DNA of 64,000 bases, from NCBI RefSeq assembly GCF_001447785.1, contig NW_015177041.1:475426-539425 (forward strand). The letters run 5' to 3'. The position numbers were made by a program, and so were the translations under genes. Shown here piece after piece: positions 16,506 to 37,800 of this stretch. Origin of the DNA: Gekko japonicus (Eukaryota). Each line of letters opens with the position of its first letter. Position 1 is the stretch's first letter. Below the pieces are notes generated by a model that searched no databases, had not been told where the DNA came from, and saw nothing but the letters and a program-made list of their open reading frames with translations.

Positions 16506-16518
16506 GGGCCAAAGGTCG
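16506..16518 (+). promoter_or_regulatory. DR1/HNF4-like element (candidate APOC3/APOA4 intergenic enhancer)
   Basis: GGGCCA-A-AGGTCG in a GC-rich, repeat-poor island (15.5-16.6 kb). Confidence 0.4.
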
Positions 16519-16642
16519 CGCTGCTCAAAGGCTGCGTTTATCCTTCTCCTGTTGCTGGTGCCACTTGGCCGAGAGCAGAAAAGCAGTCCGAAAGGTGCTA
16601 ATGTCAGCGTTCAGAACTGACTGATGGCAAAGGACAATTATG

Positions 16643-16921
16643 AGCCAGTTGGGAGTGGTGGTTAAGCGCACGGACTCTAATCTGGGAGAACCGGGTTTGA
16701 TTCGCCCACTCCTCCACTCGCAGCTGCTGGATGACCTTGGGCAAGCCATAGTTCTGACAAGAGCTGTCCTTGGAAAAGAGCAGTTTCTGTCAGAGCTCTC
16801 TCAGCCCCGCCTTACCTCACAGGGTGTCTGTTGTGGGGAGGGGAAGGGAAAGGAGTTTGTAAGCCGCTCTGCGACACCTTTGGGTAGTGAAGGGCGGGGT
16901 ACAATTCCAATCTCTTCTTCT
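16643..16921 (+). mobile_element. Squam3-like SINE
   Basis: Family match. Confidence 0.8.
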
Positions 16922-17285
16922 ATGTCTCAAATCTCCCTGCTTGTTACAATGCGCAAGTACGTTCGAGTTGAGGGACTTTGCAGAACACAAATCCCACAAT
17001 CAACGTGAGTTGATCGGTGCATATGGCACATGGGGGAAAAGACATGGCTGTGGTATCTGCTTATGTCAAGTCGTGTTTGCAGAGTTGTGGGGAGTGGACA
17101 TTTCACCACGATGTGGACTCCCTGAGAACAAGCAGCCCCCTCCGCCTCCTTCCCCAGAGGGTGGGATGCCAGGCGGATCACGTGTGGGGAGGAGGCCATC
17201 AAGGACAGCTGCTGGTTTCAGACCCGGCCAGGCCTCCCCCGAAAGCTCCCCCCATTAACATCCCGTACCTTCCAGGGAACTTTCT

Positions 17286-17911
17286 GGTCACCACGCCTTA
17301 AAAAGGATATTATAGCTTTGGAAAAAGTGCAGAAAAGGGCAACTCGAATGATAAAAGGGTTGGAACACTTTCCCTATGAGGAAAGGTTAAAGCGCTTAGG
17401 GCTCTTTAGCTTGGAGAAACGACGACTGAGGGGTGACATGATCGAGGTTTATAAGACTATGCATGGGAAAGAGCAGGTAGAGAAAGAGGTACTTTTCTCC
17501 CTTTCTCACAATAAAAGAAGTCGTGGGCACTCCATGAAATTGCTGAGCGGTCGGGTTAGAACGGATAAAAGGAAGTACTTCTTCACCCAAAGAGTGATTA
17601 ACACTTGGAATTCACTGCCACAGGAAGTGGTGGCGGCTACAAGCATGGACGGCTTCAAAAGGGAATTAGATAAGCATATGGAGCCATCAGTGGCTATTAG
17701 CCACGAGGTATAGATAGGGGCTCTGGGGCAAGTGATGCTCTGTCATCTTGGTGTTTGGGGGGGGGGGCAACAGTGGGAGGGCTTCTAATGTCCTGGCCCC
17801 ACTGGTGGACCTCCTGATGGCACTGGTATTTCTGGCCACTGTGTGACACAGAGTGTTGGACTGGATGGGCCTTTGGCCTGATCCAACATTGGCTTCTCTT
17901 ATGTTCTTATG
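17286..17911 (+). mobile_element. CR1 LINE 3' end
   Basis: EKVQKRATRMIKGLE...[18 protein letters not shown], then the 3'UTR and a (TTCTTATG)n tail. Confidence 0.9.
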
Positions 17912-18299
17912 AGCGACAGGACGTGATTAGTCCTGCCAAGGAAGGTGTCGGGGCTCAACGCAGCCAGAGAGGGCACGCTCCACCTCCCAACCTCCTGCAC
18001 GTTCCACTGTCAGCCCCACAGTTGTGTGTGTGAAAAACCCTTCTGGAAGAACAGCCGAAGTAACACAAGACGGTGTGCAACCTACTTTGGAGTTCTTGTC
18101 AGGGTGGATGTGGGAACACACTGCCTGGTGGTGGTGGTGGGGACCATCTTGGACTCTGTTCTGAAGGGCTCTCCCCTGCCTCCCTTCGCCCGTCCCACCC
18201 CCACCAGCCCCTAAAAGTGGTGTTTGACAGGTGGTGGGAGCCCCCCCCAGCCGTTGTTCCCCTCCTCCTCCAGCAGATAAGTCCTCACCCTGGTCAGCA

Positions 18300-18453
18300 T
18301 CCTGGCCCTCCACGTCCGTCTGCAGCTGCTAAAGTCCAAGTGCTCAGGATGTGTCACCGCCTGTCTGCGTGGAAGCGGGAGGAGAGTCCATCGCGGTCCT
18401 ATAAATACCGAGGGGCTGAGCGGAGGAGCAGCACCAGAGCACCAGAGGCCCAG
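18300..18453 (+). promoter_or_regulatory. APOA4 proximal promoter and non-coding exon 1
   Basis: HNF4-type AAAGTCCAAG at 18331-18340, ATGTGTCACC, CCACGT at 18310-18315, TATAAATA at 18400-18407, and donor CAG|GTGAG at 18453/18454. Confidence 0.75.
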
Positions 18454-18647
18454 GTGAGCTGTCTGCTGCAAGGGGGTGGGGCCGGGCCGGGCCGGGCCAC
18501 AGAGTCCAGGAGTCGCTGCACGCCTTGGGTGGTGGAGGCATGCTAGGCAGCAGGGCAGGTGGGAGATGCGGAAGCCCCTTTAGTCTTGCATTGCTTGAAG
18601 TGATGCAAAGGAGGGCCTCCGTGGCCAAGTATCGGGTGGGTCCCCCA

Positions 18648-18857
18648 CCCCACCCAGGTCCCAGCACCGTCCGCCATCCCATCTGCCGTGGGTGACAGGG
18701 AGGGCCTCTGCCAGTCAGAGGACAAGGCGGGCCTCGCACACCCAGGTCTGGGCCCCACCCAGGTCCCAGCACCGTCTGCCTTCCCATCTGCCGTGGGTGA
18801 CGGGGAGGGCCTCTGCCAGTCAGGGGAACAAGGCGGGCCTCGCACACCCAGGTCTGG
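18648..18857. repeat. Tandem duplication, 2 x ~105 bp, in APOA4 intron 1
   Basis: Units start at 18648 and 18753 and differ by only a few bases. Confidence 0.9.
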
Positions 18858-19011
18858 CTCAGTTGAGAGAAGGCAACTTCCTGTGTCCAGTGGGGGTGGG
18901 GCAGGCCAAAGGGGGGGCTGGAGCAGAGCCGGCCCCATCCGTCGATCTCACTGGGGGTCCTTCTTCTCTTCCACAGCACTTTCCCAGTCCGGAAGCAATC
19001 CCCACAACAGG

Positions 19012-22000
19012 ATGGAACTGAAGGCAGCTGCCTTGATCGTCAGCCTCTTGGCCATTGCAGGTGAGTTCCTTTGGGGATCCAAGCACAGAGCTCGGGGGTT
19101 CAGTCCTCCTCTTCTGCTCCCTGACTCAGAGCAGGGGATAGAACTAGGGGGATACTTCTAAATGCATGCATAACTGAACGCGTGTCCTTGAAGGTCTGGC
19201 AGTGGACCAAAGCATTTATTCCCCAATACTGTCAAGTGCCGAGGTGCCGTTTCCGGCTTCATTTGCCGGCAGAGAGCAGAATGAGAGTGAAGAAGCTTCT
19301 GCCGAATTGCCACGTAGCTCTGATCAAGTGATTTATGAAGGTCTAAGTTGTGAGAGCCGGGGTCCGAACTCTCTCCCAGGTCCCGTTTAGCAAAGCTCTC
19401 GTGAGCAGCAAGTGGGCTAAAGTTGTCTTGAGAAACTCACCCACGAGGTTAGCTATTAGCGGGGCTTTTTTTTCTGGGGGAATGCGCCAGAACGGAGTTC
19501 CAGAAACTCTCTGACAAATTCTTTTAACAATGTTTATGAGTTCATGAGTTGTCAGTGTACAGCCTGAATACTTCATTTCCCTCTTGAGAATTCCGGCCCC
19601 TCTTTTTTATATATATAAAAAGAGCCCTGGCTCTTAGGAGCAGGTTTTGCTTGACTCAGCTGACCCAACCGTTGGACCGGGCATTGTTTAAGAAGCCTCA
19701 AAGAGGTGGCCAGAAGGTGGGCTTCAGCTGGGGAGGTGGGAGGGAGATGAGGCCAGGTGTGTGTGTGTCTCCTGCCTACCCCGGCGCCCGGGCGCTGCTG
19801 GGCCCAGCCTGTCCTTTGTGACCCCCGGTGGCCCATCTTCTGGGAGGCCTCGGGTGCACGTCGCCCTGCCGGCCTGGCTGAGGGGGTGCCGCGGTCATCG
19901 GGAGGGGGGGCTGTGGAGATCAGACCACAAAGAGACTCACGGGAGACGTCTCTCAGGAGAGGCAGCGCAGTCACCCGTCCGGGAGCGGAGTTCTTCTGCT
20001 GGGGTGGGGGGTTTGGGCTGCACACTGGACTCCCTTCCCTCGTCGTCCCTCCAGGGGCCCAGGCGGATGTCAGTGCCGACCAGGTGGCGGATGTGGTGTG
20101 GAACTACTTCACTCAACTGGGCAGCAACGCCCAGGAGAAGGTGGATCAGCTCCAGCAGTCGGAGATCAGCCAACAGCTCCAGTGAGTACCTGCTCTTGGG
20201 GCCCGCACAGCGGGGGGGGGGGTTCCGACTCCTGTCTGGCTACAAAGAGGGGCAGGGGACACTGCACTGCTCAGAGCCCCCCCCCCCCCCCCCCCCCCCC
20301 CANNNNNNNNNNNNNNNNNNNNNNNNNNNNNNNNNNNNNNNNNNNNNNNNNNNNNNNNNNNNNNNNNNNNNNNNNNNNNNNNNNNNNNNNNNNNNNNNNN
20401 NNNNNNNNNNNNNNNNNNNNNNNNNNNNNNNNNNNNNNNNNNNNNNNNNNNNNNNNNNNNNNNNNNNNNNNNNNNNNNNNNNNNNNNNNNNNNNNNNNNN
20501 NNNNNNNNNNNNNNNNNNNNNNNNNNNNNNNNNNNNNNNNNNNNNNNNNNNNNNNNNNNNNNNNNNNNNNNNNNNNNNNNNNNNNNNNNNNNNNNTCACC
20601 CATGCCCCCCCCCCCCCCGGAGGTTGCAACCTCCCACTTACCGATAACCGGCCATACTTAGTTACCTCAATGGGCCGGATTCTCCCTACGGCAAGCATGA
20701 CTATTGATTTTATATGTTTTAATGTGTTTTAAATTTTATTGTATTTATCAAAATGTTGTGACCCGCCCTGAGCCCATTTACGGGGTGGGCAGGATATAAA
20801 TGCAATAAATAAATAAATGATTCAAGGTGGGAGAAGTTGTTATGGGCCTGAGTCCTCTTCCTTAGGTGCCCAAAGGGTCACACGTAGCTTGCCACTGGAG
20901 TATGTATGCACATGTTTGCATAAGGGCATGAGGAGAAGGTGTGTGTGTGTGCATGAACCTGTGTCGAGGGTTAGTTGTTTCCTGTCATGAAATCTCCTCT
21001 CCTGGTCCCTCTGGAGCTCAAGTGGTGCTGCTGAGAAAGCTGGGAGCTGCAGCTCATGTGCACCTTTCTTGGTTGATTCAAATGTGTATACCCCGTCTTT
21101 CCCTGTGTCTCCTACAAAATACCTCCCCCCCCCCAAAGATGTGTGTGGCCTAAACCCCATTTGCAGCCACAGCCAACAGACGGGCCTTGTAGCACCTCCT
21201 AGAGCTTTCGAGTGGTGGCCCCACAGGATCCGGTGGCTTCATCCCGGCTTCTTTCGGGAGGCCTGCTGCCCATGGCATTGAGCCTCCCCTCCAAGCTCCA
21301 GTCAAAGTTCAGAAATGGCCCCCCGGACACTCCTGACCACCGCCCCCCCAAAAAAAACACAGGGGAGGAAAGAGATGCACTTTATTGGGGTTTGGCTCAG
21401 GCTGAAAGTCCACTGCCGTGATATGGGCTACGTCTGCTGTGAAGGAATGGACTTGCAAAGCCCCCCCCCCCCCTTTCTTTGGGTTGGGACCCAGGAGGAA
21501 GTCAGAAGAACCCCACAGCTGTCCCAGGTCCCTGTTTGGCACTGCCGCCATCCCTTACTCCACGGAGGTGCCAAGAACCAACTGGGTAACCCCCACAGCC
21601 ACCAGTGACCCTGGGAGTATCTCCTGCTCCTCGGAACGGTACCTCTTGCACTTTGTACCTGTGTTGCTGCTACGAGTCCCCACTCAGCTGTTGCACCTCC
21701 TGCTTTGTGGCTACAAGCCCACACTGGGGCAGTCTATTGCAACGCAGTCCTCCCAGTGTTGAGATATTGCGCTCCAGGGACGGGGAGCTTAACCCCTGCC
21801 CCTCCCCGTGAATCCCACTTCAGACAGCAAGACTGAATAAGTGTGGTGTGCTGACAGAGATCAGATTTAGAGCATTCAAAATACAATAATAAATGAATGA
21901 AAAGAATATCGTGCAGGCTAAACAAGGGTAGAGCGGATGGGGGTGGCTCCCGCCCCTCCTCCAGCACAGCAGTCTTTCCCATTGGGACCCATCCAAGCCA

Positions 22001-23585
22001 CTTCCACGACTAGTAGTCCCGAGTCTCTGGGTGTTGGGAGAGAAGGAACGACCCACCTTCCGCCAGCGGGTGAAGACTTTTTGCCTTTAGTCTGGCGTTC
22101 CCTCAATGAGCCCTCCTTCCCGCCTTATGTTGTAATTGCCGTCTCCGTGTCTGTATCTTAGTGTTGGCTTTATGGTGTGTTTGGTATATTTATAATGATA
22201 ATTATTTGTTTTGGCAGCCACCTTTGGGTGGCCCTGATGGGGCAGAATGGTGGGATGCAACTGTTTTTTTAAATATATAAAGTTTTATTAGTTTATATAT
22301 AGAAAGGGGGGAAGGGAAAAGAAGGGAAAAGAATTTTTGTTGTTCAGAATACAGAGTTATATATAAAAGCCAATTTGACATTCTGCATGTGAATCTTCTC
22401 ATAAAAGTTTCACAACTATTATATCCATCTTTCTTAATGTTCTTCATTTAGTCTTAGTTTCTCAGTACTTATGCTTTAACCAGTCATAGAACACCCTCCA
22501 TGGTCCCGTAAATTCTTCTTCCATTTTTCCTTTTAGTATATTTGTCAATCTGTCCATTTCAGCACATTCCATAACCTTCGTTATCAATGCATCGAGCTTG
22601 CTGCAACCGTTGTTGCCCAAATCCCTGACTTCTCCCTGCTCCCCCTTTTGATTGCAGGACCCTCTTCCAGGACAACGTCCAGACAGTCAGCATGTACACC
22701 GGGGACCTGAAGAAGCAGCTGATTCCCTTCGCCACAGAGCTGCACGCGCGGCTGACGGAGGAATCCCGGAAGCTGAAGGAGCAGATCCAACAGGAGATGG
22801 AGCAGCTCCAAGCCCGGATGTCCCCCTTTGCCGATGACGTCCACCAGCAGATCAGCAAGAACATCCAGGAGCTGCAGACCAAGCTGGCCCCTTATGCGGA
22901 GGAGCTGGGTGTGCAGGTGGAGAAGAGCACCGCAGACCTGCGCCAGCAGATGGTCCTCCTGAGGCAGAATGTGCAGGCCAAGCTCGAAGAGAACATTGGC
23001 AGCCTCCAGAGCTCCCTCACCCCGTACGCCGACGAGCTGCAGCAGCAGATCAACCAGAAGGTGGAGGACACCAAGAGGCAACTGGCCCCCTATGCCGACG
23101 AGATCAAGGCCAAGGTGGACGAGAGTGTGGAAGAGCTGCGCAAGAGCTTGAGCCCCTACGCCCAGGAGATGCAAGAGCAGCTGACCCGCCAGCTGGAGGG
23201 GCTCTCCTTCCAGATGAAGAAGAGTGTCGAGGACCTGCGCTCCCAGCTCTCGGAACAAACTGAGCAGCTGCGCCTGAAGCTCAGCCCGTATGCCCAGGAG
23301 CTGCAGCAGAAGCTGGAGGAGGGCGGGGCGGACCTGCGGGAGTCCCTGGCCCTCTACGCCCAAGGCCTGGACGGCAAGGTCGGCCAGCAGGTGGAAGAGT
23401 TCCGCCAGGCCGTGATGCTCCAAGGGCAGAACTTGAACAGGCAGCTGGTGCAGAAAATGGAGGAGATGCGGCAGAAGCTGGAGCCGCACACTGACACTGT
23501 GGGAGACCACCTCGTCTTCCTGGAGAAGGATGTGAGGGACAGGTTCAGCTCCTTCTTCGACAGCCTGAGGCAGCTCGGAAACTAA
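19012..23585 (+). CDS. APOA4: Apolipoprotein A-IV (coding exons 19012-19060, 20055-20181, 22658-23585; 367 aa; non-coding exon 1 ends at 18453)
   Basis: [39 protein letters not shown] and TLFQDN...[20 protein letters not shown], with many PYA 22-mer repeats. Coding exon sizes of 49 and 127 nt match APOA4. AATAAA at 23836-23841. Confidence 0.97.
20303..20595. other. Assembly gap (APOA4 intron 3)
   Basis: N run. Confidence 1.
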
Positions 23586-24836
23586 GAGGGGCCCTTTCTG
23601 CTTCCGACACAACCCGTCACAGCCCAACATCCCTTATTTCCGGCTCCAGAGCAGCGTTCCTAGATAACGTCTTCTTTGCTTCCCACCCTCTCCAAGGACA
23701 GGAATGAGAAGCCAGCAGGATTCAGAACTGTGTGGCTGAGCATTAAGGGGGCCCTTTGTCCCAAATGTAGGCGAGGGGCACCTCCCCCTCCTCTCGGTGC
23801 GGCCCGTTCCCATGCAGAGTCAGAGATGTGGATGAAATAAAGGAGCCCCTTTGCAATGAGCCCCCATGACGCTGCCTCTTTGGTTTATTGGGAGACTCGC
23901 TGGTGCCTGTGCCAGAAGGACGCTTGCTTTTATTTAAATGTTGATGCCCTGCCTTTCTCCGTGACTCAAGGTGGTTTACAAATGCAATTTAAAACATACA
24001 ATAACCCACCCCCCAAACAACACCCTCCCCTCTAAAAGCCTTCTCCCCACACATTAAGAAAAGCCCTCTCCCCAAAAGCCTCGCAGAGCCTCCTAGACGC
24101 CTCTGCAGATTTTGCCTCCCAAGCCCTCCCCCACCCGCAGGAGACTCATTGTATAGGACGGGAGCTATGATGGGAAGAGCCTGGGCTGGGGCAGACGCCC
24201 CGGGGGTGGGGCGGCATCCTAAACAGGGCAACAGCAAGCAGGTCACGCCTGGGGGACTGTGGCCGGTGGTGTCAGGGCACACATGGGAAGAGATGGAATT
24301 CTTTTGAAGGGATTTCTTTGGGGGGGAGGGAGGGAATTTGATCACAGTCTGAAGGTTTCTTATTGAGGGGGGCCCTCAGATGAACAATGGAGTGGGGGCG
24401 GGGGTGGTTATCACGAATCAGACCTTTCTTGCAAGGAAAACAAAAAGGATTTAAATGCACAGTTTTTTTTTTTAAATCTGAGACGGTGAGGTTGCGGCTT
24501 GCCTCTGTGTGATGCCCAGGAACGGTCAAGAGCACTCTGCTTTTTGGGGGGGGGGATGAACAACAAAGAGTCGTCTCCGATGGAGAGCCCATTCCCTGAG
24601 CGAAATGAAAGTTTACACAGAGAAGAACAGACCCTTGGAGGTGAAGTGAACTGTGTTTTTGGCCGAAGGGGCTGGGAGTCCTGGGCGTAAAAGTGCACAA
24701 AGCCCTTGACAACTGCTGTGGCTTTTCCCAGCCGTCTTTCCTGCCTGTTGTGCCCAGGCGGACCTCTGAAGCGGATCCAGAAACATTCAGCCTGAATGGG
24801 TTGTTTTTAAACTCAGATACTTTGTCTACTTACAAC

Positions 24837-25044
24837 CAGTGTTCCCTCTAAGCTGAGTTAGTGTGAGTTAGCTCACAGTCTTTTTAGCCTCCGGCTCACA
24901 CATTTTTGTCTTAGCTCAGGAAGGGATGGCTCCAGAGCAAGCTAATTTATGCAGTAGCCAAATCACTTGCTCACAACTTTAATGCCAGTAGCTCACAAAG
25001 TAGAATTTTTGCTCACAAGACTCCACAGCTTAGAGGGAGCATTG
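24837..25044 (+). mobile_element. hAT-type MITE
   Basis: TIR CAGTGTTCCCTCTAAGCTG; TSD cttacaac/tttacaac. Confidence 0.85.
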
Positions 25045-25894
25045 TTTACAACGAACACCTTTCTCAATTAACTAAGACGCTTGTTAAGCTACACACACAC
25101 AGCCCTGCCTCCAAGTCGCTAATGGTGGATTCTTCTCAGGACCCCTGGTGGATGAGCATGAGGGTAGAAAATCCAGCAGAGGAAATGGTAGGCGGGTCGG
25201 GTGGGTGGAGCATCACCAAGTGGGGAGGGGCTTGTGAACCAACTGCCACTGTTTTTTTTAAAAAAAACAGGGATTTCCCTGTTCAAAAGAAGAAGTCTGG
25301 TTCCTTGCACTCCTTTAAAAGCCTCCACTTGGGTAGCCCAAACTAGCACCGCAAGCTGCTTGATGAACCCGTTGGTGTGCCCTGACCACAGGCCAGGTTC
25401 AAATCATTGGGGGGTATAAGGATCCTGGGGGCCCCTCATCCTTTTTTTTGGGGGGGGGGAGGAGGGGACAATCCTATAGCTGAAGCTAAGAGCCGTCTTA
25501 TACGGAAGAAAAGGGAGCAAGAAGACTGTGGAGGAAAATGAGGTCTTCATAGATAACAGAGTCATGGCTGAATGCACGCGAGGATTAAATGTTTGCTACA
25601 CAAGTAAAGCTTTAAAGCGCCGTGTGATGCACAGTGAGAGTGATCTGCTTGCAAACTGGAGGCCTGACTTACTAGCCCAGGAGCTAAACGCCCTCCAGGG
25701 CCTGCCTGAGAGATCCCCAGCAGCAGTTTGTGCTTCGCAAACTTTATCTCCGTGAACCTGCTAGTAGACAAGGTCTTTCCAACAGAAACACCCCCCCCCC
25801 CCAATGTGGAGATCTCCTGCCACAACAACTGTTGTTCTCCAGACGACTGAGATCGGTCCCCCTGGAGAAAATGGAAGCTTCTAAGGGTGGGCTC

Positions 25895-26493
25895 CAGTGT
25901 TCCCTCTAAGCTGAGTTGCTGTGAGCGCCGAAGAATAGATTCTTTTGAACTATGGTGCTGGAGAAGACTCTTGAGAGTCCCTTGGACTGCAAGGAGATCA
26001 AATCAGTCAATCCTAAAAGAAATCAACCCTGACTGTTCCCTGGAAGGCCAGACAGTGAAACTGAAGCTCAAATACTTTGGCCACCCAATGAGAAGGGAGC
26101 ACTCACTGGAGAAGACCCTGATGCTGGGAAAGACTGAAGGTCAAAGAAGATGGGGACGGCAAAGGATGAGATGGTTGGACAGTGTCATCGATGCAACGAA
26201 CATGAAACTGAGCAAACTTCAGAGGACGGCGGAAGACAGGAGGGCCTGGTGTGATGTGGTCCATGGGGTCACGAAGAGTCGGACTCGACTGTGCGACTGA
26301 ACAACAACAACAACAAGCTCAGAGGTTTTTTAGCCTCCAGCTCTCAGATTTTTGTCTTCGCTCAGGAAGGAGGGGCTCCAGAGCAAACGGATTCATTCAG
26401 CAGCCAAATCACGTGCTCCCAACTTTAATGCCAGGCGCTCACCACGGGGAAGTTTTGCTCACAACAAGACTCCGCAGCTCAGAGGGAGGATTG
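25895..26493 (+). mobile_element. hAT MITE with a nested BovB 3' end (~25921-26316)
   Basis: MITE ends flank RRIDSFELWCWRRLLRVPWTARRSN and a (CAA)n tail. Confidence 0.85.
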
Positions 26494-27009
26494 GGCTGGG
26501 CTCCCTGCCGAGGTCCCTCCCCTCCCCAAGCCCCGCCCTCCTCAGGGTCCACCCCAGGGTGAGTCTCCAGGCGTTTCCCAAGCCAGGGCCGGCCACCCTA
26601 ACTGTGAACCCCGAGACGCCCTGCGGGACCCACTGAGCAGCAAGCGCCTGGTAGGGAGTCGTAGGATAGGACGACCGTCACGTGGCAGGAAGAGGTGGCC
26701 GTCTCTGAACCTGCCCGTGCTGAAGAGGATGCCCCTGCTCTGTGTGCGGTGGGTGGGTCGGGGGGGGGGCTTGACTCTCCACTCCCGGCAGGCCCTCCTT
26801 CCAAAAAGGGCTTCTAGGGATTTGGGGGGAGCTGCTGCCTGCCACCCATAGGCTGTGCTTCCTCCTCGAAGACGGAGGGGGTGGGGCTGCAGAGGTCCTG
26901 GAGAAGGTCCTGGGATGGATGAAGGCCAATGAGCTGAAGCAATCTGTAATTTCTACCCATTAGATCTAGTCTCGCTCCAGATTGCAAGACTAGATCGAAT
27001 GGGTGGACA

Positions 27010-27250
27010 TTACAAGGGAGTCGTTACCGGCTAAATCTCAGGAGAAACTTCCCGACTGTGAGAGTGGTTGAGCAGTGGAACAGACTGCCTCGGGAGGTGG
27101 TGGAGGCTCCTTCGCTGGACGTTTTCAAGCGGAGGCTGGACGACCCTTTCAGGTACGTTGTAGGGCCATCTTTCGGCTGTGCTCCTGCAGAGTGCGGGGG
27201 GTTGGACTAGATGACCTGCAAGGGCCCTTCCAACTCTAACATTCTATGAT
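27010..27250 (+). mobile_element. CR1 3' end (second subfamily)
   Basis: TGGAACAGACTGCCTCGGGAGGTGGTGG...GGCCCTTCCAACTCTAACATTCTATGAT tail. Confidence 0.75.
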
Positions 27251-27935
27251 AAGACATGGGCACTGCTGGTCAACAGCAAAGCTGCTGGGGCACTCCTGTG
27301 TCAGCCTGTCACAGAGGAGGCTGGTGTCGTCCCCCCACCCCGGAAGGCATAGGCTAGGGGTGCTACTCGGTCCTGGCCTATGGCTGGAGGCTCACTTCTC
27401 TTCCATGCTACATAGCGCTTCCCCCTCCCCCCCCCAGCTTTGCCTGATACGCCAGCAATGGCCATTCCTCTAACAGCATTGCCTGTGTTGAGCCACACTC
27501 TGACCACATCCGAGTTTGATCGCTGTAACATGCACAGTGGGGGGGGGGGCTGGCTTTGAAAACCGCCCCCAAATACAGCAGCTCTGCTGTTCTCAAGGGC
27601 TTGACACAGAAATCACATATCTCCTCTGCTGAAGGATCTGCATAGGCCACCCGTCTGCTTCTGGGCACGATTCAAAGTGCTGGTTCTTATCTTGAAGGGA
27701 TGGGAATGCCTCAAGACTGTTACCATATATGGAACAAGAGAGGCCAGATGTTCAAGCTGGATTCAGAAAGAGGAGAGGCACTGGAGATCATATTGCAAAT
27801 TTACGTTGGTTATTGGAGCATAGCCCAGCCTAGCCCAATCTCATCCGATCTCAGAAGCTAAGCGAGGTCGCCCCTGGCCAGTATTTGGACAGCAGACCAC
27901 CAAGGAATACTAGGGTCCGTGATGAGGAGGCAGGC

Positions 27936-29398
27936 TGTGAAGAAACGCATGGTCTCCTGGAGGGTTGGCAAGCAGCAAAAGCCTTCCCTGTGCATTTTAC
28001 CAGTTTCCTCTCTAGTCTACAAATGCTAATGACTCTAGCGGAAAAGACAATGGGATGGTTAAGTCTTCCCCCTTCTCCCTCCTTCCCCAACCAAGCAAGA
28101 GAGTTTGGAGGGCTTTAAGCTAGACCAGCCCCAGATACAATCTCCAGGAATGGGCTGGAGGAAGTGCTTCTTTGACCTGGCAGGACCTGGTCAAGGAGGC
28201 GGAGACAGAGAATTAATAAACGTTCCTTGTCAGAGGAAGATGGTCTCTCTTTTCTTTGGGGTGCTGAACAGACCTCTTGTTTGAGGCTGGGAGCAGGCAG
28301 CCGTTTTGGACCAGAGAGCTGGGAGAATGCCTCAAGGTAATGGCAGATCTTTAGAGAACTGGAGCGCCTAAGATAAAGCCTGTTCCACATTTTACCATCA
28401 GATAGGGCACATACAGCTGAGAGTGACAGAAGAGGATTTACATGTTACCAATTATTTTTTGTTCTTACTTCAATCTGGTGCCATGCTAAAATACGCTTGT
28501 AAACATTTTCTTTTTAATAAGTGTTTTAAACTGTTGATGCAAGGACTGGTTCTCTGTACTACACAGGCCCCCACTATTTTGGACACGATCTTTTATAAGG
28601 AAGCTCCAGGAAGGGGGGAGGCAAGCGGTTGGCAACTGGCTATTCCCCCAAGGGTACACAAAGCATTAAACCTTCCCTGTGGTATTCAGGCGCTGGGCTA
28701 GTGGGAGATGTTGAGGCAAGGCCTCTGAGCTTGGATGGGGAGCTGAGGGTCCTGATCCGTTCAGTGGGAAATCCCTATATTGAAAAGGTGGTGGTGGTGG
28801 GCTAATCATGAGCAATGGTCCCTCTAAGCTGTGGAGTCTTGTGTGCAAAAACTCTACTTTGTGAGCTCCTGGCATTAAAGTTGTGAGCGAGCAATTTGGC
28901 TACTGCATAAAGTAGTTTGCTCTGGACCGGAGCCCTCCTTCCTGAGCGAAGACAAAAATGTGTGAGCTGGAAGCTAAAAAGAAGAAGAGGAGATTGGATT
29001 TATACCCCGCCCTTCACTTGGAGTCTCAGAGCGGCTTACCAGCTCCTTTCCCTTCCCCTCCCCACAACAGACACCCTGTGAGGCGGGTGGGGCTGAGAGA
29101 GCTCTGACAGAAACTGCTCTTTTCCAAGGACAGCTGTGCCAGAGCTTGTGACTGACCCAAGGTCACATCAGCAGGTGCAAGTGGAGGAGTGGGGAATCAA
29201 ACCCGGTTCTCCCAGATTAGAGTCCGCACACTTAACCACTACACCAAACTGGCTAGACTGTGAGCTAGCTCACACTAACTCAGCTTAGAGGGAACACTGT
29301 TCATGAGTACAGAAAAAGCCCCTCCAGGGAGTTGGGCACCCCCAAGGAGGGCAGGGTGGAATGGGACTTACAGGCCAGAGTAGGCACATTCTGCCACA
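27936..29398. mobile_element. Solo LTR (~970 bp after removing nested elements)
   Basis: TGTG...CACA termini and a 5-bp TSD CAGGC at 27931-27935 and 29399-29403. Confidence 0.7.
28813..29299 (-). mobile_element. hAT MITE containing a Squam3-like SINE (~28981-29253)
   Basis: TIRs; TSD atcatgag/ttcatgag. Confidence 0.85.
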
Positions 29399-29519
29399 CA
29401 GGCAATGGCAAAACCACCTCTGAAGTCTCTTTCCTTGAAAACCCCAGGGGTCGCCATAAATCAGCTGTGACTTGAGAGCACCCCCCCCCCCCGAACTGGA
29501 GCATATGATAGAAATTTAG

Positions 29520-30318
29520 AAGAAAATCCGCTCATATTTCCTAGAGTATAGCAAAGCTTTTGACTGTGTGGATCATGAAAAGCTATGGTTGGCTTTAAAG
29601 GAAATTGTTGTGCCACAACATCTGATTGTTTGGATGCACAACCTGTAACCTGGACAAGAGGCTACTTAGGACAGAATATGGAGAAACAGGAGGGTTTTCA
29701 ACTGGCAAATGTGTCAGACAGGGATGTATTTTATCTCCCTGTCTCTTCAGTCTACATGCAGAACACATCATAAGGAAAACTGGATTAAATTTAGATTAAG
29801 GTGGAATGAAAATTGGAGGGAGGAACATTAACAGTCTGAGATATGCAGATGAAACCACATTACTGGCAGAAAATAGTGAAGACGTTTGAAACGACTATTG
29901 ATGAAGGTTCAAGCAGAAAGTGCCAAATCAGGATTACAAAACTGAACATCAAGAAGACAAAAGTAATGACTACTGGGGAATTACCAAACTTCAAGGTTGA
30001 CAATGAAGACACGGAAATTGTTCAAGACTTTATATACCTTGGTTCTATATACACCAAAAGGGAGACTGCAAGCAAGAAATCAGAAGGAGATGGTAACTGG
30101 GAATGGCAGCCATGAAGGAGCTGGAAAAAAACTTCTTAAGTGTAAGGATGTGTCGCTGGCGACCAAGATCAAGGTAACGCATGCCACAGTATTCCCCACC
30201 ACTATGTATGGGCGTGAAAATTGGACAATGAAGCTGACAGGGAGAAAGTTGATTCATTTGAAAAGTGGTGCTGGAGGAGAGTTTTATGGACTGCCAAAAA
30301 GACAAATAAGAAGGTTCT
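29520..30318 (+). mobile_element. Old degenerate RTE LINE fragment
   Basis: KAFDCVDHEKLW, LRYADET and LNIKKTKVM with frameshifts. Confidence 0.8.
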
Positions 30319-30320
30319 AG

Positions 30321-30785
30321 GGGCCGCGGTGGCTCAGAAGTTAAGATGCTGAGCTGCAGACCGGAAGGTCTGTAATTCGGCAGTTCTAGACCTGAGTGCC
30401 ACGTGAGGGAGTGCGCTCCCATCTCTGGCCCCAGCTCCTGCCAACCTAGCAGTTTGAAAGCAAGAAATTGCAATGCACCTCAGCGTCTAGTCATGCCAGC
30501 CACATGACCACGGAGGAGTCTTCAGACAGCGCTGGCTTGGAAACGGAGATGAGCACCGCACCCTAGTGTCAAATTCGACTGGCTTTCAAGCAAGGGAAAC
30601 CTTTTAAATAGGTGCCGCTTTGGTGGGAAGGTAACAGCATCCCGTGCGCCTCAGCATCTAGTCATGCCAGCCACATGACCACGGAAACGTCTTCGGACAG
30701 CGCTGGCTCTTCGGCTTGGAAATGGCACTGTATCCCTAGAGTCAGATTTGACTGGCTTTCGAGCAAGGGAAACCTTTACCTTTAG
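30321..30785 (+). mobile_element. Sauria SINE with duplicated 3' part
   Basis: tRNA-like head, CCAGCTCCTGCCAACCTAGCAGTT, CTAGTCATGCCAGCCACATGACC twice, and an ACCTTT tail. Confidence 0.8.
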
Positions 30786-30879
30786 ACCAAATCAAGCCTG
30801 AACTCTCTCTAGCAGCTAGAATTAATTTCACTTTATTGCAGAAACTGGATGTCTCATGCTTTTTATTCCTCCATTAGGG

Positions 30880-31800
30880 GTGTTCCCCCAACGGGGGGCG
30901 GAGAGCCCCTGAGGCCCGGCGAGCCCCCACGGCAGAGAAGAGGCTGGCGCCCGAGTGTGCCGGGGCCCCCCCACACCGGAAGTGCCCCCCTCCCGAAAGG
31001 AGCTGGATGAGGGAACTACCAGGCGGCAGACTCTCCTCGTGGGACCTTCGCCCGGGGGGGGGGAGAGGGGGGGGCTGCCTGCCCGGAGTCCTTCCTCCCT
31101 CCCCCCCCCCGTGNNNNNNNNNNNNNNNNNNNNNNNNNNNNNNNNNNNNNNNNNNNNNNNNNNNNNNNNNNNNNNNNNNNNNNNNNNNNNNNNNNNNNNN
31201 NNNNNNNNNNNNNNNNNNNNNNNNNNNNNNNNNNNNNNNNNNNNNNNNNNNNNNNNNNNNNNNNNNNNNNNNNNNNNNNNNNNNNNNNNNNNNNNNNNNN
31301 NNNNNNNNNNNNNNNNNNNNNNNNNNNNNNNNNNNNNNNNNNNNNNNNNNNNNNNNNNNNNNNNNNNNNNNNNNNNNNNNNNNNNNNNNNNNNNNNNNNN
31401 NNNNNNNNNNNNNNNNNNNNNNNNNNNNNNNNNNNNNNNNNNNNNNNNNNNNNNNNNNNNNNNNNNNNNNNNNNCCCCCCCCCCGGCGCAGGGCGTGACG
31501 CGGCTGCTGCTGACGCGGATCCCCTTCTTCAAGGAGGTCATCGTCAGCTCCTTCGCCTGCGGCAGCTGCGGCTGGGCCGACGCCGAGATCCAGTCGGCCG
31601 GCCGCATCCAGGACCTCGGCGTGCGCTACACGCTGGACGTCCGCACCAAGCAGGTGGGTCCGCCCGGGCCGGGAGGCGGGGCTGTGGGGACCGGCCCTGC
31701 GGCGGCGACGCTTCGGGAGCCCGTTTGTCCGGTCCCACGGATGGAAACGGCATTCCCGGGCCTGGCACGGGGGGGGGGGCACCCACTCCCTCGCCTGCTC
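30880..31800 (+). promoter_or_regulatory. ZPR1 CpG-island promoter
   Basis: CpG-rich sequence with ETS motif ACCGGAAGTG at 30975-30984, just upstream of the gap that contains exon 1. Confidence 0.65.
31114..31474. other. Assembly gap hiding ZPR1 exon 1
   Basis: N run between the ETS-containing CpG island and the exon 2 acceptor. Confidence 0.95.
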
Positions 31801-34800
31801 TGCAAAGCTGGGTGGGGGAAGCCTTTGCGAGAAGCCAGCTGCAGGGGTCTGGATGGGTGCCCGGTCACCATGGAGGCCCCGGAGAAGTGTAAGGGTGCCA
31901 GCACTCTGTCACGCAGGCACCGGGCCTTTTGGGCCACTGCGTGACACAGAAGAGTGCTGGACTGGAGGGGCCACTGGCCGGAGCCACCACTGGCCTCTCT
32001 TAGGTTCTGATGCCTGCACAAATGCCCCTCTTGTCCCAGGCTGAGCCTGTTGAGACGAAGGAGGCTTTCAAAGGTGCCTCAGCATGACTCGCCTAATGGA
32101 GGGTGTCTTGTGGAGGCACGAAGCTGCCTGGTCGCACCTTTCAGGGCAGTAGTGACCTTGGCAGGGTCCTGAGGTCTACGTTTCAAAAACCTGGGGCCAG
32201 ACTGCCCATGACTAAGATGGTGGCTGGTTTGTCAATGTTTTTCTTCATGAGCTAGAAAGGAAGGCTGTTGGTGAGGATGTCGTTGAAGCCCGCACTATTT
32301 GTTTTTAAATGTCTTGACTGCCTTTCTCTGCAACCAGGGAAGGTTCAGAGCCGCTTATGTGCACCAAATCATTTTCACCACAGCAAACATTTACACCACA
32401 AAAACCAGCTCTTAAGATTTCATAGTATAGGGCCAGAGTGACATATCACAACAAAACTTCAGCGGCTGTTCTACCTGCTGTGTGATCCGTGCCACCCACC
32501 TCTGATTCCACCCTCAAATTAGGCTTGTGTTACCCCTTTTCTGATTTTTCTCTGGGTGCTGCTGTCATGCACTAACTCAGTTTGGGAATACATTTCCAGA
32601 CAGGCAGGCAGCCACTAGTGCTGGTCCTGAGTTTGTGCCGCTTCAGCTGGTGGGAAGGGTTCTGCTGTGTCCCTCTCTGCTCATGTTCCTCTCAGCCTGT
32701 GTCCATACCCGCTCAGGTGGGCTGCTGCAGGGTTCCCAGGTTGGTGTAATCTCTCCTTGAATCATTCTCTCCAGGATTTGAATAGGGAAGTGGTGAAGAC
32801 TGACTCTGCCACAGCTAGAATCCCAGAGCTAGAATTTGAAATCCCAGCTTTTTCTCAGAAGGGAGGTGGGTATATATATATGGTCATTCTGGTATGTCTT
32901 GGGGCAGTTGGCAGGGGGAGGACATGAGCAAGAGTGGCAGCAGCTAGCAAGTCCTTGATGCTAAGACTGTGTGTTACGGAGAAGGTGCTGCTCCTTCGGG
33001 TTATGCAGGGAGCTTTTTTTGCAACAGATGCCCTGACTTGAACATTAGTGTTTACGGGGGGGGGGGGGGGCAGAAGGCATGGGTCCACCAATTGGCCTGT
33101 GGGATCCCGACACCTGATAAATCTCTCTTTGCCTGTTAAGAAGTCTGTGCTTGTTGCTCTCTCCTGGTCACATGTTGGTTGCTTGCAAAAACAGTAGTGG
33201 TTGCTTGAAACCTGGGCGCTGAATTAAGTTGTGGGGGATGTCAGCTGTACCCCACCCCCCAGGCACATGCTGCCTGCATCAGAGTTCTAGTTGCAGGGTT
33301 TCCTTGGGGCTGGTGCTACCTTGCTGCAGTAGTGAGAGGCATGAAGCCAGGGGCCATTAGAGGTGAAAAAGGAAGCTGAAGAGCAGGGCTTATGGCTGTC
33401 CATTGACTGGTCAGCTGAGCTAACTCTAGTTTGGGAGAGCCAGCAAATGAACTGCCTGTGCCAATGAAGAGGAGCCCAGTTGCTGCTCTGGAGAGTGGAA
33501 GGGAATAATAAACATATGGCTTTTTCCCTGTCACTAGCACTTACAACCATCGAAGGGATAATTGACAGAGCCGTAGCGGGATTGGAGCAAGATCAGCCAG
33601 TCCGCAAGGTAAGTTGCTTGCAAAGGATCCATGTGAGCAATATCTGGGTGATATTTATTTCAGTATCTGTAGAATACTTTTCTTCCCTGTGGGAACCCAA
33701 AGCCGCTTACAACATTATTCTGCTCTCCTGCACTTTGTCCTGACAACAGCCCTGTGAGGTAGGTTGTGCTGAGAGAGAGCGATTGGCCCAAGCTTCCCCC
33801 ACCGAGCTTCCACAGCAGGATGGAGATTTGAAACTGGGCCTTCCAGATTGGACACCCGAACCACCACACCGTGCTAGTTCTCTGAGACAACACACTATGT
33901 GTGAATAAACCAGCACAAAACAAATGGTTCTAACATCTTGGGCTGGTTGTGATCTCATTGGCTGGCTCACTTGAAGTCATGGGCTCAGAGTGAAAGGACC
34001 GAGAGCCCTTGGCCCGTGCCCTCTGTGTGCCCCTCTAGTCATGCCCAGGTTTTATAGGGTACCTGAAACAGGAAGGGAAAAGCCAGTCCGCAGCAAAGAC
34101 GTTCCTCCCACTCTTTCTCTGCCTGCTGCTTTGTGGTAGTGGGGAGTCGGCTGGAGGGGTAAGATGTGTGAGTGGCCATGCTGGCTACTGATGGGTATCT
34201 TGCTCATTGAACTGGCTGAGACTGAAGTTGAGTTCTTGGGGTTGTAGTGGAAAGCTTAATGAAAACACTGACCCAATGTGCGGCAGCAGTCCTAAGCATT
34301 ATTACTGAAGGTACTAAAAACAAACCGATATTGTATTTAATGATGTGGTGTACTGTATGCAGTTCTGGTTGCCAGAGAAGCCGGTGTGATGTAGTAGTTA
34401 AGAGTGGTGGTCTGTAATCTGGAGAACTGGGTGTGCTGCTCCATGTGAAGCCTGCTGGGTGACCTTGGGCCAGTCACAGTTTTCTCAGAACTCTCTCAGT
34501 CCCACCTGGCTCACAAGGTGACCGTTTGGGGGAAAGGAAGGGAAGGTGATTGTAAGCTGCTTTGAGACTCCTTGGGGTAGAAAAAAGTAGGGCATAAAAA
34601 CCAGAGCTGAAAAAAGTACTAAGAAAGGCAACCAAGACGAATAGGGGGTTCCTATGATGAAAGGCTGGAGATCCTGGGACTTGAATCTAGAAAAAAGATG
34701 GTTAAGAGGAGACATGATAGAAGTTATAAAATTATGCATGGGGCGGAGAATGTGGCTAGAGGGAGCCTATTCCCCCTCTCTTATAATACTAAAATTCAGG

Positions 34801-37800
34801 GTCGGTCAATGAAGTTGAGGTTTAGGACACACAAAAAGAAACACTTACTCAATGAGTAAATATGCAGATGGCACAGAAACATTAGTAGAAGAATTGCTGT
34901 GGGAAGCACAGATCATCTACCTGGGGTTCAACAGTCACCTCTTGGGAAACAAACATTGAACAGTGTCTGGAAGAACTGGAAGACAATGCACAGGTTTGGG
35001 TGCATTTTGAATGGAAGGCTGATTCTGCATATTAGAAACTGTCTAAAAATATAGTTCATAGTCCTAGAGGTTCAGTAAATCAGCACCTAAATGCCCGGCT
35101 GGTTCTTGCAAAAATATATAGCAAGTTAAGGCTATAAAAGGAAAGACGTTAGGCTGAGTGAGGCCAGCTTTCCTTTAGCGCACAGCAGTTGAAGTTACCG
35201 GAGTGAAGCCTGGAACATCTGCCTTTTCATTTCAGGAAACTGACCCAGGTGTGGCAGGACAGATAGATGCATTCATCTCGAGATTGAAGCATCTGAAAGA
35301 AGTGGAGAAAGGCTTCACTTTCGTAAGTCCCTGAAGGCTGGTATTGCTCATGGGGTCAGTTCTCTGTATGAACTCCCCCCCCACCCCCCGGTGACTTTCA
35401 GCAGCAAAATAAGGATTTCAGCTGCTTCCCTTCCCCTCCCTTTCTGCCAGGTCCTAGATGACCCTTCAGGGAACAGCTTCGTGGAGAACCCTCATGCTCC
35501 GCGGAGGGATGAAGCCCTGGTGGTTGCCCATTATAAGCGATCTGCCCAGCAGGCTGTGATGCTGGGGATTCAAGTAAGCCAAAGGAGGAGCTGCTTGGGC
35601 TTGGAGGCTGGATGAAGGCCCTCATGCCACTTTGGCTCACCTCATGCTTCCACATCTTTTGTGGCCCTAAATCGTGGAGAGCCTGTCCTGCTGCTCTCCT
35701 ACCTGCTTGAAGCCCTGCTTTCTCTTCCCTTTTCTAACCTGCATGCAGAGGATGTGATGCTCTGAATGTCTGAGGCTGTCCCAGTTTCAGCACGGTCCCG
35801 TTTCTTTTCCAGGAAGTGGAGTCTGATGATAAGTCAGTGGAACCAGCAGATGATCTGAGGAACGAGGTGAGTGAAGTGTCGGAGAGCTGGGTGTTTGGGC
35901 AGAGGAGTGCCTTTGGGCAGGGCCGTTCCCCCGAGGCAGAATCCAGCCGTGGGCCTGGCTGGCAAGTCTGGGCCTCATTCAGATGCCTTGGTGCTGCCTC
36001 TCTGTCAATCCAGGTGCTGCAGTTTAACACCAACTGCCCAGAATGCAATGCTCCTGCCGAGACCAACATGAAGCTGGTGCGTATCCTTTTCAAGTGCAGG
36101 CGAGCACCTGGTTCTGGCTGCACACATGCGACTGTGGTCCATGAGGCACCTGCGTGGTGATGGGTCGTTCTTCTGGGTGGCCTGTCTGTTGCTGCTTTGT
36201 GGTGATATGGGTCCAGTTCTGGGACTGAAGGGATCCCAGGCTGACGATGCTGGAATCTAGCAGAAAGTTCCCGTTGTGTAACTGGCAGTGGGGGGTGGGG
36301 TGGGCCGATCTGCCTGGAGGAGGATGGCAGCGTGAGCTTGACCACTTGGGTCCGTGTGCAGCATTCCTTGACTGCCCATTTGCAGAGGTCCCCCACTTCA
36401 AGGAGGTCGTCATCATGGCCACAAACTGCGAGGCGTGCGGCCACCGCACGAATGAGGTGAGGCTTTTCTGTCTGGAAGAGGCTGGTTCACCTCCACTTGC
36501 CAGGGAGGGTAAGCCCTGCCTAGCCATTCACTGTGTTCTTCCCTACTTACGTGTAGGTTAAATCTGGAGGAGCCATAGAGCCTTTGGGAACCAAGATAAC
36601 CCTCCACGTGACAGACCCCTCGGACATGACTCGGGACCTCCTTAAGGTAGGGCCTCCCCCCCCCTCCCGGTATGTCCGCTCCCTCTTGGAAGAGCCCTGG
36701 AGGATGAGGGGCCCAGCTAAGCATCCTTCCTTTTCCACAGTCCGAAACCTGCAGGGTGGAGATCCCAGAGCTGGAATTTGAGATGGGCATGGGGGCCCTG
36801 GGTGGCAAATTCACGACCCTGGAAGGATTACTGAAGGATATCCAGACCCTGGTGAGTGACTGGCTCTGGGTCAGCTGCTGCTGGAGGGGGACGGGGTGTG
36901 TGTGTCGCAAGGCTGGACCTGCCACTTGGCGAAAGGGAAACCGTCCCTGAATGAGACTCAAAACGCTCTGTGCCTTGGGGAAGGGGGACTGCCCCTGAGC
37001 AGTCGGCTCATGCGGAGTCCTCTCTCTGCAGGTGGAGAAGAACCCCTTCACCCTGGGGGACAGTTGCACCCCTGGCAGGGCAGAGAAACTCAGTGCATTC
37101 AGCCGGAAGCTGCAGCAGGTGAGGCCCTAGGGGGCTGTGACTTTCAAATGTGGCATGTGCTGTATTCACTTGGAGTGATGCTCTTCCTGGCCCTGGCCAC
37201 ACTCTGATTTGCTGGCTGGGAAGAGAGTGTCTCTGCTGTGTACACGCAGCTTTGCTTTTCTCTTTTTTCTCCTCCTCCAGATTTTGGATGGGCAGCTGCG
37301 GGTACATTTTGTTATGGATGACCCTGCAGGGAACAGTTACCTTCAGGTAAAGTGTGACTGCAGGAAGTGTGCGTGAGATTAAGTTTTATAGCGTGTTGTG
37401 CATCAAAGAGCAGGTGTTCTAAAACCTTGGCCAGCGCAGGGGCAGCCAGAAGACAGCCCAGAGCAGTGTATGTTCCAAAGGGGCAGAAGCAACTGGGCCA
37501 AGGTGACTTTCCTTATGCAGCTTGCTTGGGCTGTGGCTTAGGTAGGAAGGTGGATGAAGCGGAATAGAACAAATGGTTAAGAGAGGGGGTGGAGATGGCT
37601 GCACTGGAGTGAACTCTGGGAGGTCCATTCAAATGCCCACCCGTGTGTCAGGCTCAATAGAGCTGTTGCAGTCCACAATTCATAAGTATAGGTTGCTTCA
37701 TTACAAGTCACTACTGATGCTCTCACATAGCCGTTGTCAGGCATGAAACTCAAAACCAAGCAGGGACAGATATAGACAGTTCAAACACACAGGATTGACC

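Follow-up and report, generated by a model that had tools for sequence, protein, structure and literature searches.

Absence of APOA5 from its syntenic slot and a likely APOC3 pseudogene in the apolipoprotein cluster of Gekko japonicus

In humans, APOA5 and APOC3 both count among the major triglyceride genes, and the latter serves as a drug target (PMC11201263). An initial annotation of one Gekko japonicus locus held that APOA5 is missing from its syntenic position and may have been lost jointly with APOC3, which raises the question of what became of each gene and by what route. We examined the locus in a 64-kb stretch of DNA (the window), in which APOA1, APOA4, ZPR1, and BUD13 follow one another on the plus strand, an order and orientation like those of the mammal and bird APOA1/C3/A4/A5 cluster. 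The genes are as follows.

1488-1533, 1772-1928, and 3258-3873, plus strand: coding exons of APOA1 (272 aa; polyA signal at 3957)
19012-19060, 20055-20181, and 22658-23586, plus strand: coding exons of APOA4 (367 aa; polyA signal at 23836)
31492-38900, plus strand: ZPR1 from exon 2 to the stop, exons read (Pfam PF03367, E = 3.9e-17)
42988-52344, plus strand: BUD13 from its start codon to the exon tested, with the 3′ end beyond the mapped part (Pfam PF09736, E = 3.1e-15)

APOA1 and APOA4 both have open frames. ApoA-I structures were the best PDB matches of APOA1 (E = 4e-26), and both introns of this gene are spliced in RNA; the gene at 19,012-23,586 matched ApoA-IV in the PDB (E = 2.9e-87). That the latter might be a misnamed APOA5 was ruled out by its best solved relative, ApoA-IV, and by a protein tree that placed it with APOA4, outside the single 100/100 clade formed by lizard APOA5 proteins (364 to 425 aa). 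A scan for HNF4-like DR1 sites gave 2 matches against 3.16 expected and was thus not above chance. In a bird-like fused gene model, APOA4 runs directly into APOA5, which documents their same-strand adjacency in another sauropsid. Unlike the mammal and bird cluster, the window lacks APOA5, its APOC3 slot is disrupted with no RNA seen, and about 7.3 kb separates the end of its APOA4 from the promoter region of ZPR1. The slot in which APOA5 is expected is the following.

23900-30900, no strand assigned: vacant slot of APOA5 (repeats make up at least 41%; APOA5 searches negative)

No APOA5 was found between APOA4 and ZPR1 (23,641-31,113). Pfam recognized an apolipoprotein family in none of the 128 plus-strand stop-to-stop ORFs of at least 20 aa in 23,590-31,113, while the positive control, the last exon of APOA4, returned PF01442 at E = 1.2e-66; a long last exon with this Apolipoprotein A1/A4/E domain is absent from the plus-strand ORFs of 23,641-31,113. 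For the 125 minus-strand ORFs of the slot and for the 203 plus-strand ORFs in the spacer from APOA1 to APOA4, coverage came from the APOA5 HMM and from tblastn rather than from Pfam. When six lizard APOA5 proteins were searched against both strands of the slot with tblastn, the best E value was 0.057. A lizard APOA5 HMM peaked at −1.1 bits, compared to −2.4 to 6.5 in 12 shuffles, and a frameshift-tolerant APOA5 profile scored 26.7 on the plus strand and 30.0 on the minus strand, compared to 25.2 to 33.4 in 15 shuffles. Even with frameshifts allowed, similarity to sauropsid APOA5, including its conserved C-terminal helix, did not rise above shuffle level anywhere in the slot. The absence of APOA5 claimed in the initial annotation is therefore upheld by the ORF/Pfam scan, by the tblastn and HMM searches that it had proposed as a check, and by the frameshift-tolerant profile. 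We also considered an inverted gene ending at the minus-strand AATAAA signals at 23,889 and 23,934; the minus strand of the slot holds no apolipoprotein signal, and this candidate was rejected.

The sensitivity of the frameshift-tolerant profile was gauged with simulated decayed exons. At 900 nt, 10/10, 9/10, and 8/10 exons were found at 0.3, 0.4, and 0.5 substitutions per site, respectively, and at 400 nt, 10/10 and 7/10 at 0.3 and 0.4; exons of 200 nt were mostly missed past 0.3. The slot had been described as mostly repeats, and much of it is indeed repeat-derived (2,867 of 7,001 bases, 41%), yet a majority was not reached by this figure, a lower bound with reference copies taken from the window only. 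The repeats identified include the following.

25923-26312, plus strand: 3′ fragment of an RTE LINE, which we take to be BovB-like (93% self-match to 40,054-40,443; tblastn with the window's RTE ORF)
27810-27923, plus strand: 5S rRNA-derived element (Rfam RF00001, 30.4 bits, E = 0.0035, under the gathering score)
28812-29315, no strand assigned: nested SINEs (the copy at 28,976-29,256, of 281 nt and with a (CTT)n tail, lies within a second family)
29496-30055, plus strand: decayed RTE reverse transcriptase fragment (tblastn E = 4.8e-42; Pfam RVT_1 E = 1.3e-4)

The (CTT)n-tailed SINE has four copies of 279 to 287 nt including the tail, and in size and tail it fits Squam3B3, a Gekkonidae marker of about 270 nt plus a (CTT)n tail (Table 1 of PMC7983390). 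The longest stretches without a repeat assignment are 23,900-24,820 (921 nt), 25,051-25,806, and 27,914-28,463, and about 4.1 kb of the interval is so unassigned. These bases could harbor fragments of an APOA5 that decayed in place very long ago, in stem geckos, past recognition among the repeats. A plus-strand AATAAA at 28,215 would suit such a history, and so would the limits of detection: of the 900-nt exons, 2/10 were found at 0.6 substitutions per site, and of the 200-nt exons, 0/10 at 0.5. However, no collinear series of weak matches was seen in the interval, and the sole suggestive one, a plus-strand match to Sceloporus APOA5 at 27,592-27,909 (E = 0.077), was rejected because both an RTE fragment and the 5S element overlap it; we give ancient decay in place a small chance.

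A missing gene may also reflect the assembly. The window contains three gaps (20,303-20,595, 31,114-31,474, and 54,970-55,024), all at G/C runs. The interval 23,900-30,900 has 0 N and is gap-free, as annotated, whereas the path from APOA4 to the ZPR1 start codon is not, since a gap lies just past the interval.

31114-31474, no strand assigned: 361-N assembly gap between C-runs (flanks 71% and 75% GC) that hides ZPR1 exon 1

APOA5 might thus have collapsed out between repeats, several SINE copies in the interval being 80 to 90% identical, or it might sit in an undersized gap between the interval and the first visible ZPR1 exon, or elsewhere in the genome. The preferred reading of a true deletion is exposed to this at two points: repeat copies within 23,900-30,900 may have been collapsed in the assembly, and the 361-N gap may exceed its stated size. 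Nonetheless, the GC-rich exons of APOA1 and APOA4 were assembled intact, and the gap must already house ZPR1 exon 1 (the first visible exon begins at position 16 of the Pfam ZPR1 model), while the coding sequence of a lizard APOA5 takes up about 1.1 kb. Gecko APOA5 was also absent among the nine matches listed in a word-limited search, which is weak evidence. Altogether, we regard an artifact or relocation as unlikely.

APOA5 is annotated in Tiliqua, Elgaria, Sceloporus, Zootoca, Lacerta, and three Podarcis species, which represent skinks, anguids, lacertids, and iguanians. Because several lizards have kept the gene, its loss is not squamate-wide; a squamate-wide loss was ruled out by these named genes together with PMC13268604 and PMC12773762. 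The squamate proteins are the nearest orthologues expected, and they have no counterpart in the window.

In humans, APOC3 occupies the opposite strand between APOA1 and APOA4, its 3′ end towards APOA1. The corresponding slot of the gecko, at 4,672-5,575 on the minus strand, contains a three-exon apolipoprotein-like relic placed in the same way, between the two genes and tail-to-tail with APOA1, its polyA signal 710 nt from that of APOA1. Its parts are listed below in order along the window.

4672-4840, minus strand: last exon (acceptor at 4840; amphipathic helix of 20 codons; stop at 4779-4777; AATAAA 100 nt beyond)
4943-5069, minus strand: middle exon (phase-1 start Ala-Gln-Ala; stops at 5043-5041 and 5010-5008)
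5083-5369, plus strand: SINE with a (CTT)n tail, found by self-match, within an intron and abutting the middle-exon acceptor
5502-5575, minus strand: signal-peptide exon (hydrophobic run leading to a phase-1 GT donor; ATGs at 5561 and 5537 out of frame)

The relic shows apolipoprotein exon anatomy, namely, a phase-1 signal exon, an Ala-x-Ala start, a phase-2 junction, and a short amphipathic last exon, a pattern that was in part defined post hoc. An opposite-strand unit tail-to-tail with APOA1 and with intron phases 1 and 2 is as in the mammal and bird cluster. The hydrophobic moment of the last-exon helix falls in the top 0.6% of 4,134 background 20-mers. The middle exon has either a GT donor after 71 nt or a GC-type donor that would make it 127 nt long, like APOA4 exon 2, and the phase-2 junction requires this second donor or a frameshift. 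An acceptor followed by an [Ala/Thr]-Gln-Ala exon start occurs at three sites on both strands of the 64 kb (APOA1, APOA4, and the relic) and in 0/300 spacer shuffles, the pattern having been relaxed after the relic was seen; a stricter paralog-only pattern with one mismatch gave 4 sites versus 1.27 expected. The disruptions comprise two stops and a frameshifted start. Both stops are carried by a DNA contig over 4599-5108, from a run that may be the assembly's own sample; the frameshift lies outside the listed DNA contigs. The relic resembles a unitary pseudogene in keeping splice sites, a stop, and a polyA signal alongside coding-frame stops, a frameshift, a transposon insertion, and no RNA seen; it differs in that its parent gene is inferred and that a working copy might exist elsewhere in the genome.

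No sign of a functional APOC3 was found at the relic, which has neither an intact secreted-protein frame nor RNA cover in three of three RNA-type runs. Depth was 0 in bins 4696-4926 and 5389-5619, with none at 5023, in runs of unspecified tissue that all splice APOA1, at a depth of up to 1.4e5 in one; two of the three consist of contigs, which drop rare transcripts. None of the indexed runs that contain the sequence was recorded as RNA, and a raw RNA run was included on its species label. Sequence comparisons were less telling. The relic, in pieces of 20 to 41 aa, matched neither Pfam Apo-CIII (PF05778) nor the PDB apolipoproteins, but genuine short exons, from APOA4 and APOA1, were likewise missed or marginal (APOA4 exon 2 went unmatched in Pfam). 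Against a profile of A1/A4/A5 N termini, 200 of 300 shuffles scored equally high. At the DNA level, similarity to APOA4 exon 2 was modest (8/500 shuffles equally high), and that to APOA1 exon 3 was not significant (62/500).

One might therefore ask whether only APOA5 was lost, the minus-strand element being a live rewired micro-gene or a chance look-alike and the true APOC3 residing elsewhere. One GT-AG splice path does give an open, cysteine-rich frame of 64 codons, and an ApoC-III match is lacking, with Pfam weak on short exons. Yet none of the three exons has RNA in any run, the apolipoprotein-like features sit in the broken frame rather than the open one, and Apo-CIII was detected in 0/228 minus-strand ORFs of at least 20 aa across 3,880-18,400; we consider this reading doubtful and quite unlikely. 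By position and exon anatomy, the relic is likely a silent APOC3 pseudogene.

We thus favor as probable that, in this lineage, likely geckos, both genes were lost by different routes: APOA5 most likely by outright deletion from its slot, with the APOC3 slot now a likely silent pseudogene. Deletion rather than slow decay of APOA5 is suggested by searches that reach to about 0.4 substitutions per site and found nothing of it, and recombination between the abundant SINE and LINE copies is a plausible route. The relic would descend from APOC3, and further copies of either gene are presumably absent from the genome. Enhancer sharing in the cluster is described in PMC6909560 (section 4). The spacer around APOC3 would carry the enhancer that this gene shares with APOA1 and APOA4, which may be why APOC3 decayed where it stood; APOA5, which presumably needs no such enhancer, would be cleanly removable. 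The joint loss put forward initially is supported for APOA5, as a loss from its slot, and is likely for APOC3 function at the locus, although APOC3 left a relic rather than vanishing.

Whether the losses are coupled is a separate matter. Without the lipase inhibitor APOC3, the lipase helper APOA5 could become dispensable, or the reverse, on the same branch. Both genes look nonfunctional in one cluster, and mice lacking both reportedly have near-normal triglycerides, a point counted in favor although not found in the literature searched. The single mouse knockouts are opposite in phenotype, with triglycerides at −30% for APOC3 and +400% for APOA5 (PMC6909560). Against coupling, APOA5 left no datable remnant, whereas splice sites, a stop, and a polyA signal can still be made out in the APOC3 relic; decay states so unlike allow widely different dates, and one species provides no correlation. 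Moreover, APOA5 acts via ANGPTL3/8, which is unique to mammals, ANGPTL8 being mammal-only (PMC12773762), and the platypus, which lost ApoA-V and ApoC-I, has an ApoC-III described as stable (PMC6854765, Results). A coupled compensatory loss is therefore improbable, and there is a rather slim chance that a gecko lineage represents a natural double knockout of APOA5 and APOC3, both opposing regulators having gone on a single branch because each rendered the other unnecessary, and this in an animal that has no ANGPTL8. A compensatory link is not supported; relaxed selection on lipase fine-tuning most likely would account for both losses, strict compensation not being required.

When a single lineage loses a gene for an exchangeable apolipoprotein, this resembles the vertebrate cases of PMC6854765, such as the loss of ApoC-I, C-II, and ApoE in birds. 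The gecko case is unlike them in that this paper, in the text consulted, describes ApoC-III as stable and mentions no loss of A5 and C3 together. No paper on APOA5 or APOC3 loss in squamates or geckos was found in the literature searched, outside which most subscription papers fall; the double loss is probably lineage-specific and apparently unreported. If the losses are unlinked, the case would be a further gene loss confined to one lineage and moderately interesting; if each made the other dispensable, APOA5 and APOC3 would act on one common, ancient pathway. If the double loss is true, the view of ApoC-III as stable across amniotes would need correcting. PMC12773762 raises as unanswered the question of what role APOA5 plays where there is no ANGPTL8; a living lizard lineage devoid of APOA5 and APOC3, set against lizards in which APOA5 persists, would offer a natural means of comparison.

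The window spans an apolipoprotein cluster of a squamate, in which the APOA5 interval (23,900-30,900) lies between APOA4 and ZPR1. The features that frame it are the following.

1,488-3,873, + strand: APOA1; best solved relative ApoA-I, E 4e-26
19,012-23,586, + strand: APOA4; 367 aa, ApoA-IV match at E 2.9e-87
31,114-31,474: assembly gap of 361 N, between the APOA5 interval and the first visible ZPR1 exon
Visible from 31,492: ZPR1; PF03367, E 3.9e-17
From 42,988: BUD13; PF09736, E 3.1e-15

Both coding introns of APOA1 were spliced in RNA; the gene is strongly divergent (3,127-3,873, + strand; tree branch of 1.58) and ends in a glutamine run. In a 26-protein tree, the gene at 19,012-23,586 joined APOA4, outside the 100/100 APOA5 clade. 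The tree placed three retrieved lizard and tortoise "APOA4-like" homologues (P0009, P0026, and P0015; ~250 to 314 aa) with fish APOA1-type sequences, not APOA4; they are a putative further reptile apolipoprotein paralogue with no counterpart in the window. A perfect match to an HNF4-type DR1 consensus lies at 16,506-16,518 (+ strand), within unique, GC-rich sequence that precedes the APOA4 start codon by 2.5 kb; it could be part of a common APOC3/APOA4 control region, and the number of such matches across the whole window is not above chance. On the 5' side of APOA4 (18,400-18,990, + strand), the order of a TATA box (~18,400), a donor-like site (~18,455), and an acceptor (~18,977) suggests a 5' untranslated intron; this putative intron contains an imperfect tandem duplication of ~110 nt (18,625-18,860) that the tandem finder did not report. 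A 5' untranslated intron is described, in a passage of PMC6854765, as lost from the APOA4 gene.

The initial annotation held that a gap-free 7-kb interval at the syntenic position lacks an APOA5 ORF, and our searches bore this out. There is no N within 23,900-30,900, though a 361-N gap follows at 31,114-31,474 and hides ZPR1 exon 1, a caveat absent from that annotation. None of the 128 plus-strand ORFs (≥20 aa) in 23,590-31,113 gave an apolipoprotein family match (APOA4 control, E 1.2e-66). APOA5 query proteins were gathered by homologue searches starting from APOA4. The suggested tblastn and HMM searches with sauropsid APOA5 gave no APOA5 signal in the interval: 20 APOA5 proteins from bird, turtle, crocodile, frog, and mammal found only APOA4 spill-over, six lizard APOA5 proteins reached a best tblastn E of only 0.057, and the top score of a lizard APOA5 HMM was -1.1 bits, versus -2.4 to 6.5 in 12 local shuffles. 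A frameshift-tolerant APOA5 profile scored 26.7 (+) and 30.0 (-), versus 25.2 to 33.4 in 15 shuffles; six further stretches, scored on each strand, gave 24.5 to 34.9, and APOA4 gave 310. As a sensitivity control, a held-out lizard APOA5 was decayed by simulation and sought with this profile. With ten trials per level, a 900-nt remnant was detected 10, 9, 8, and 2 times at 0.3, 0.4, 0.5, and 0.6 substitutions per site, respectively, and a 200-nt remnant 10 times at 0.2 and 3 times at 0.3; plain HMMER was less sensitive. Thus, given scores at shuffle level and this detection power, the interval holds neither the gene nor a moderately old APOA5 pseudogene. APOA5 is very likely missing from the interval, and probably from the whole genome.

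Repeats are plentiful in the interval (SINEs, RTE and CR1 fragments, and a 5S-derived element), as claimed, but the share shown, at least 2,867 of 7,001 bases, stops short of "mostly." Four measured SINE copies in the window (279 to 287 nt, (CTT)n tail) fit, by length and tail, Squam3B3, the chief SINE subfamily in two Gekkonidae according to part of PMC7983390, and thus make a gecko the likely source. Two SINE-body copies, 83% identical, lie shortly before the ZPR1 promoter region (30,474-30,777). A pair of young, almost identical RTE reverse-transcriptase copies, whose open frames exceed 500 codons (13,994-15,544, +; 40,336-41,895, -), points to recent LINE activity, and a CR1 reverse-transcriptase fragment in frame with a SINE (9,189-9,627 with 9,693-9,971) creates an artificial 336-codon ORF.

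Lack of APOA5 is unusual among lizards. A homologue search returned 9 proteins out of 1,975 candidates: the query itself, proteins annotated as APOA5 from Tiliqua, Elgaria, Podarcis, Sceloporus, and Zootoca, and three sequences of bird type; a further search added APOA5 of Lacerta agilis and of two additional Podarcis species. Lizard APOA5 also figures in sections of PMC13268604 and PMC12773762. No gecko or snake APOA5 was among these matches or the best 120 of 148 in another homologue search, a weak negative because such searches require common 5-residue words. The retrieved homologue P0005 is a fused gene model in which APOA4 runs into APOA5, so that the two are neighbors in a bird-like genome as well.

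APOC3 had also been considered gone. A functional gene is probably lost at the locus, but the slot between APOA1 and APOA4 holds a disrupted three-exon unit on the minus strand (4,672-5,575; here, the relic), directed toward the APOA1 3' end. None of the 228 minus-strand ORFs of this spacer matched Apo-CIII, although Pfam missed APOA4 exon 2 as well. The first exon has a hydrophobic run and then a phase-1 GT donor at 5,502; the middle exon follows an acceptor at 5,069 and, like its APOA1 and APOA4 counterparts, begins with Ala-Gln-Ala; and the last follows an acceptor at 4,840 and runs for 20 codons to a stop, with AATAAA 100 nt farther on. The exon-start signature occurs at three sites in 64 kb on both strands (APOA1, APOA4, and the relic) and in 0/300 shuffles; it was loosened after the relic was seen, and the pattern built from the paralogs only, allowing one mismatch, matches 4 sites versus 1.27 expected. 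The hydrophobic moment of the last exon ranks in the top 0.6% among 4,134 background 20-mers, and, with a GC-type donor, the middle exon would match APOA4 exon 2 in length (127 nt).

The apolipoprotein-like frame of the relic is disrupted: neither ATG shares the frame of the hydrophobic run, and the middle exon has stops at 5,043-5,041 and 5,010-5,008. An alternative GT-AG path leaves an open frame of 64 codons with five cysteines. The relic matched nothing in Pfam or PDB, scored no better than shuffles against an N-terminal profile, and showed DNA similarity to APOA4 exon 2 that 8/500 shuffles equalled; by eye, two middle-exon frames may resemble human APOC3. Because direct tests of similarity gave weak results or none, we regard it as probably, but not demonstrably, an APOC3 relic; derivation from APOC3 is, in our judgment, quite likely.

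Read evidence came from 4 of 24 listed runs, over window positions 1,000-7,900. A DNA contig over 4,599-5,108, from a run that may come from the sample used for the assembly, shows two differences from the window, a substitution and a single base within an intronic G-run; therefore, both stops are present in reads. The first-exon frameshift site, outside the listed contigs, might reflect a homopolymer error. Each of the three RNA-type runs (a raw RNA run and two contig sets presumed to be RNA) contained spliced APOA1, with a depth of up to 1.4e5 in one of them (X5), suggesting liver or gut, and all three had zero depth at 4,696-4,926, 5,389-5,619, and 5,023. Since contigs lose rare transcripts and the raw run covers APOA1 only about 10- to 20-fold, silence of the relic is likely, short of proof.

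The locus combines an empty APOA5 slot with a disrupted apolipoprotein-like unit, lacking RNA coverage, in the APOC3 slot. APOA5 would have been deleted, plausibly through recombination between repeats, while APOC3 would have decayed where it stood. In humans, the APOC3 enhancer acts for APOA1, APOC3, and APOA4, not APOA5, as stated in part of PMC6909560, and a common enhancer would shield the APOC3 spacer from wholesale deletion. We lean toward APOA5 loss and a nonfunctional, APOC3-derived relic both being true. Coupled, compensatory loss, as initially proposed, would accord with the opposite triglyceride shifts of mouse knockouts (-30% and +400%; excerpt of PMC6909560), but it appears unlikely: APOA5 acts via ANGPTL3/8, described as mammal-only in sections of PMC12773762, and the role of APOA5 in reptiles is speculative there; the platypus lost ApoA-V while ApoC-III is called stable (passage of PMC6854765); and the two gecko genes are in different decay states, giving no common date for their losses. 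Our literature search turned up no squamate for which loss of APOA5 or APOC3 had been described. Deletion of APOA5 and in-place decay of APOC3 would probably represent a lineage-specific double loss at one locus, apparently unreported, within an already known kind of event, apolipoprotein gene loss.
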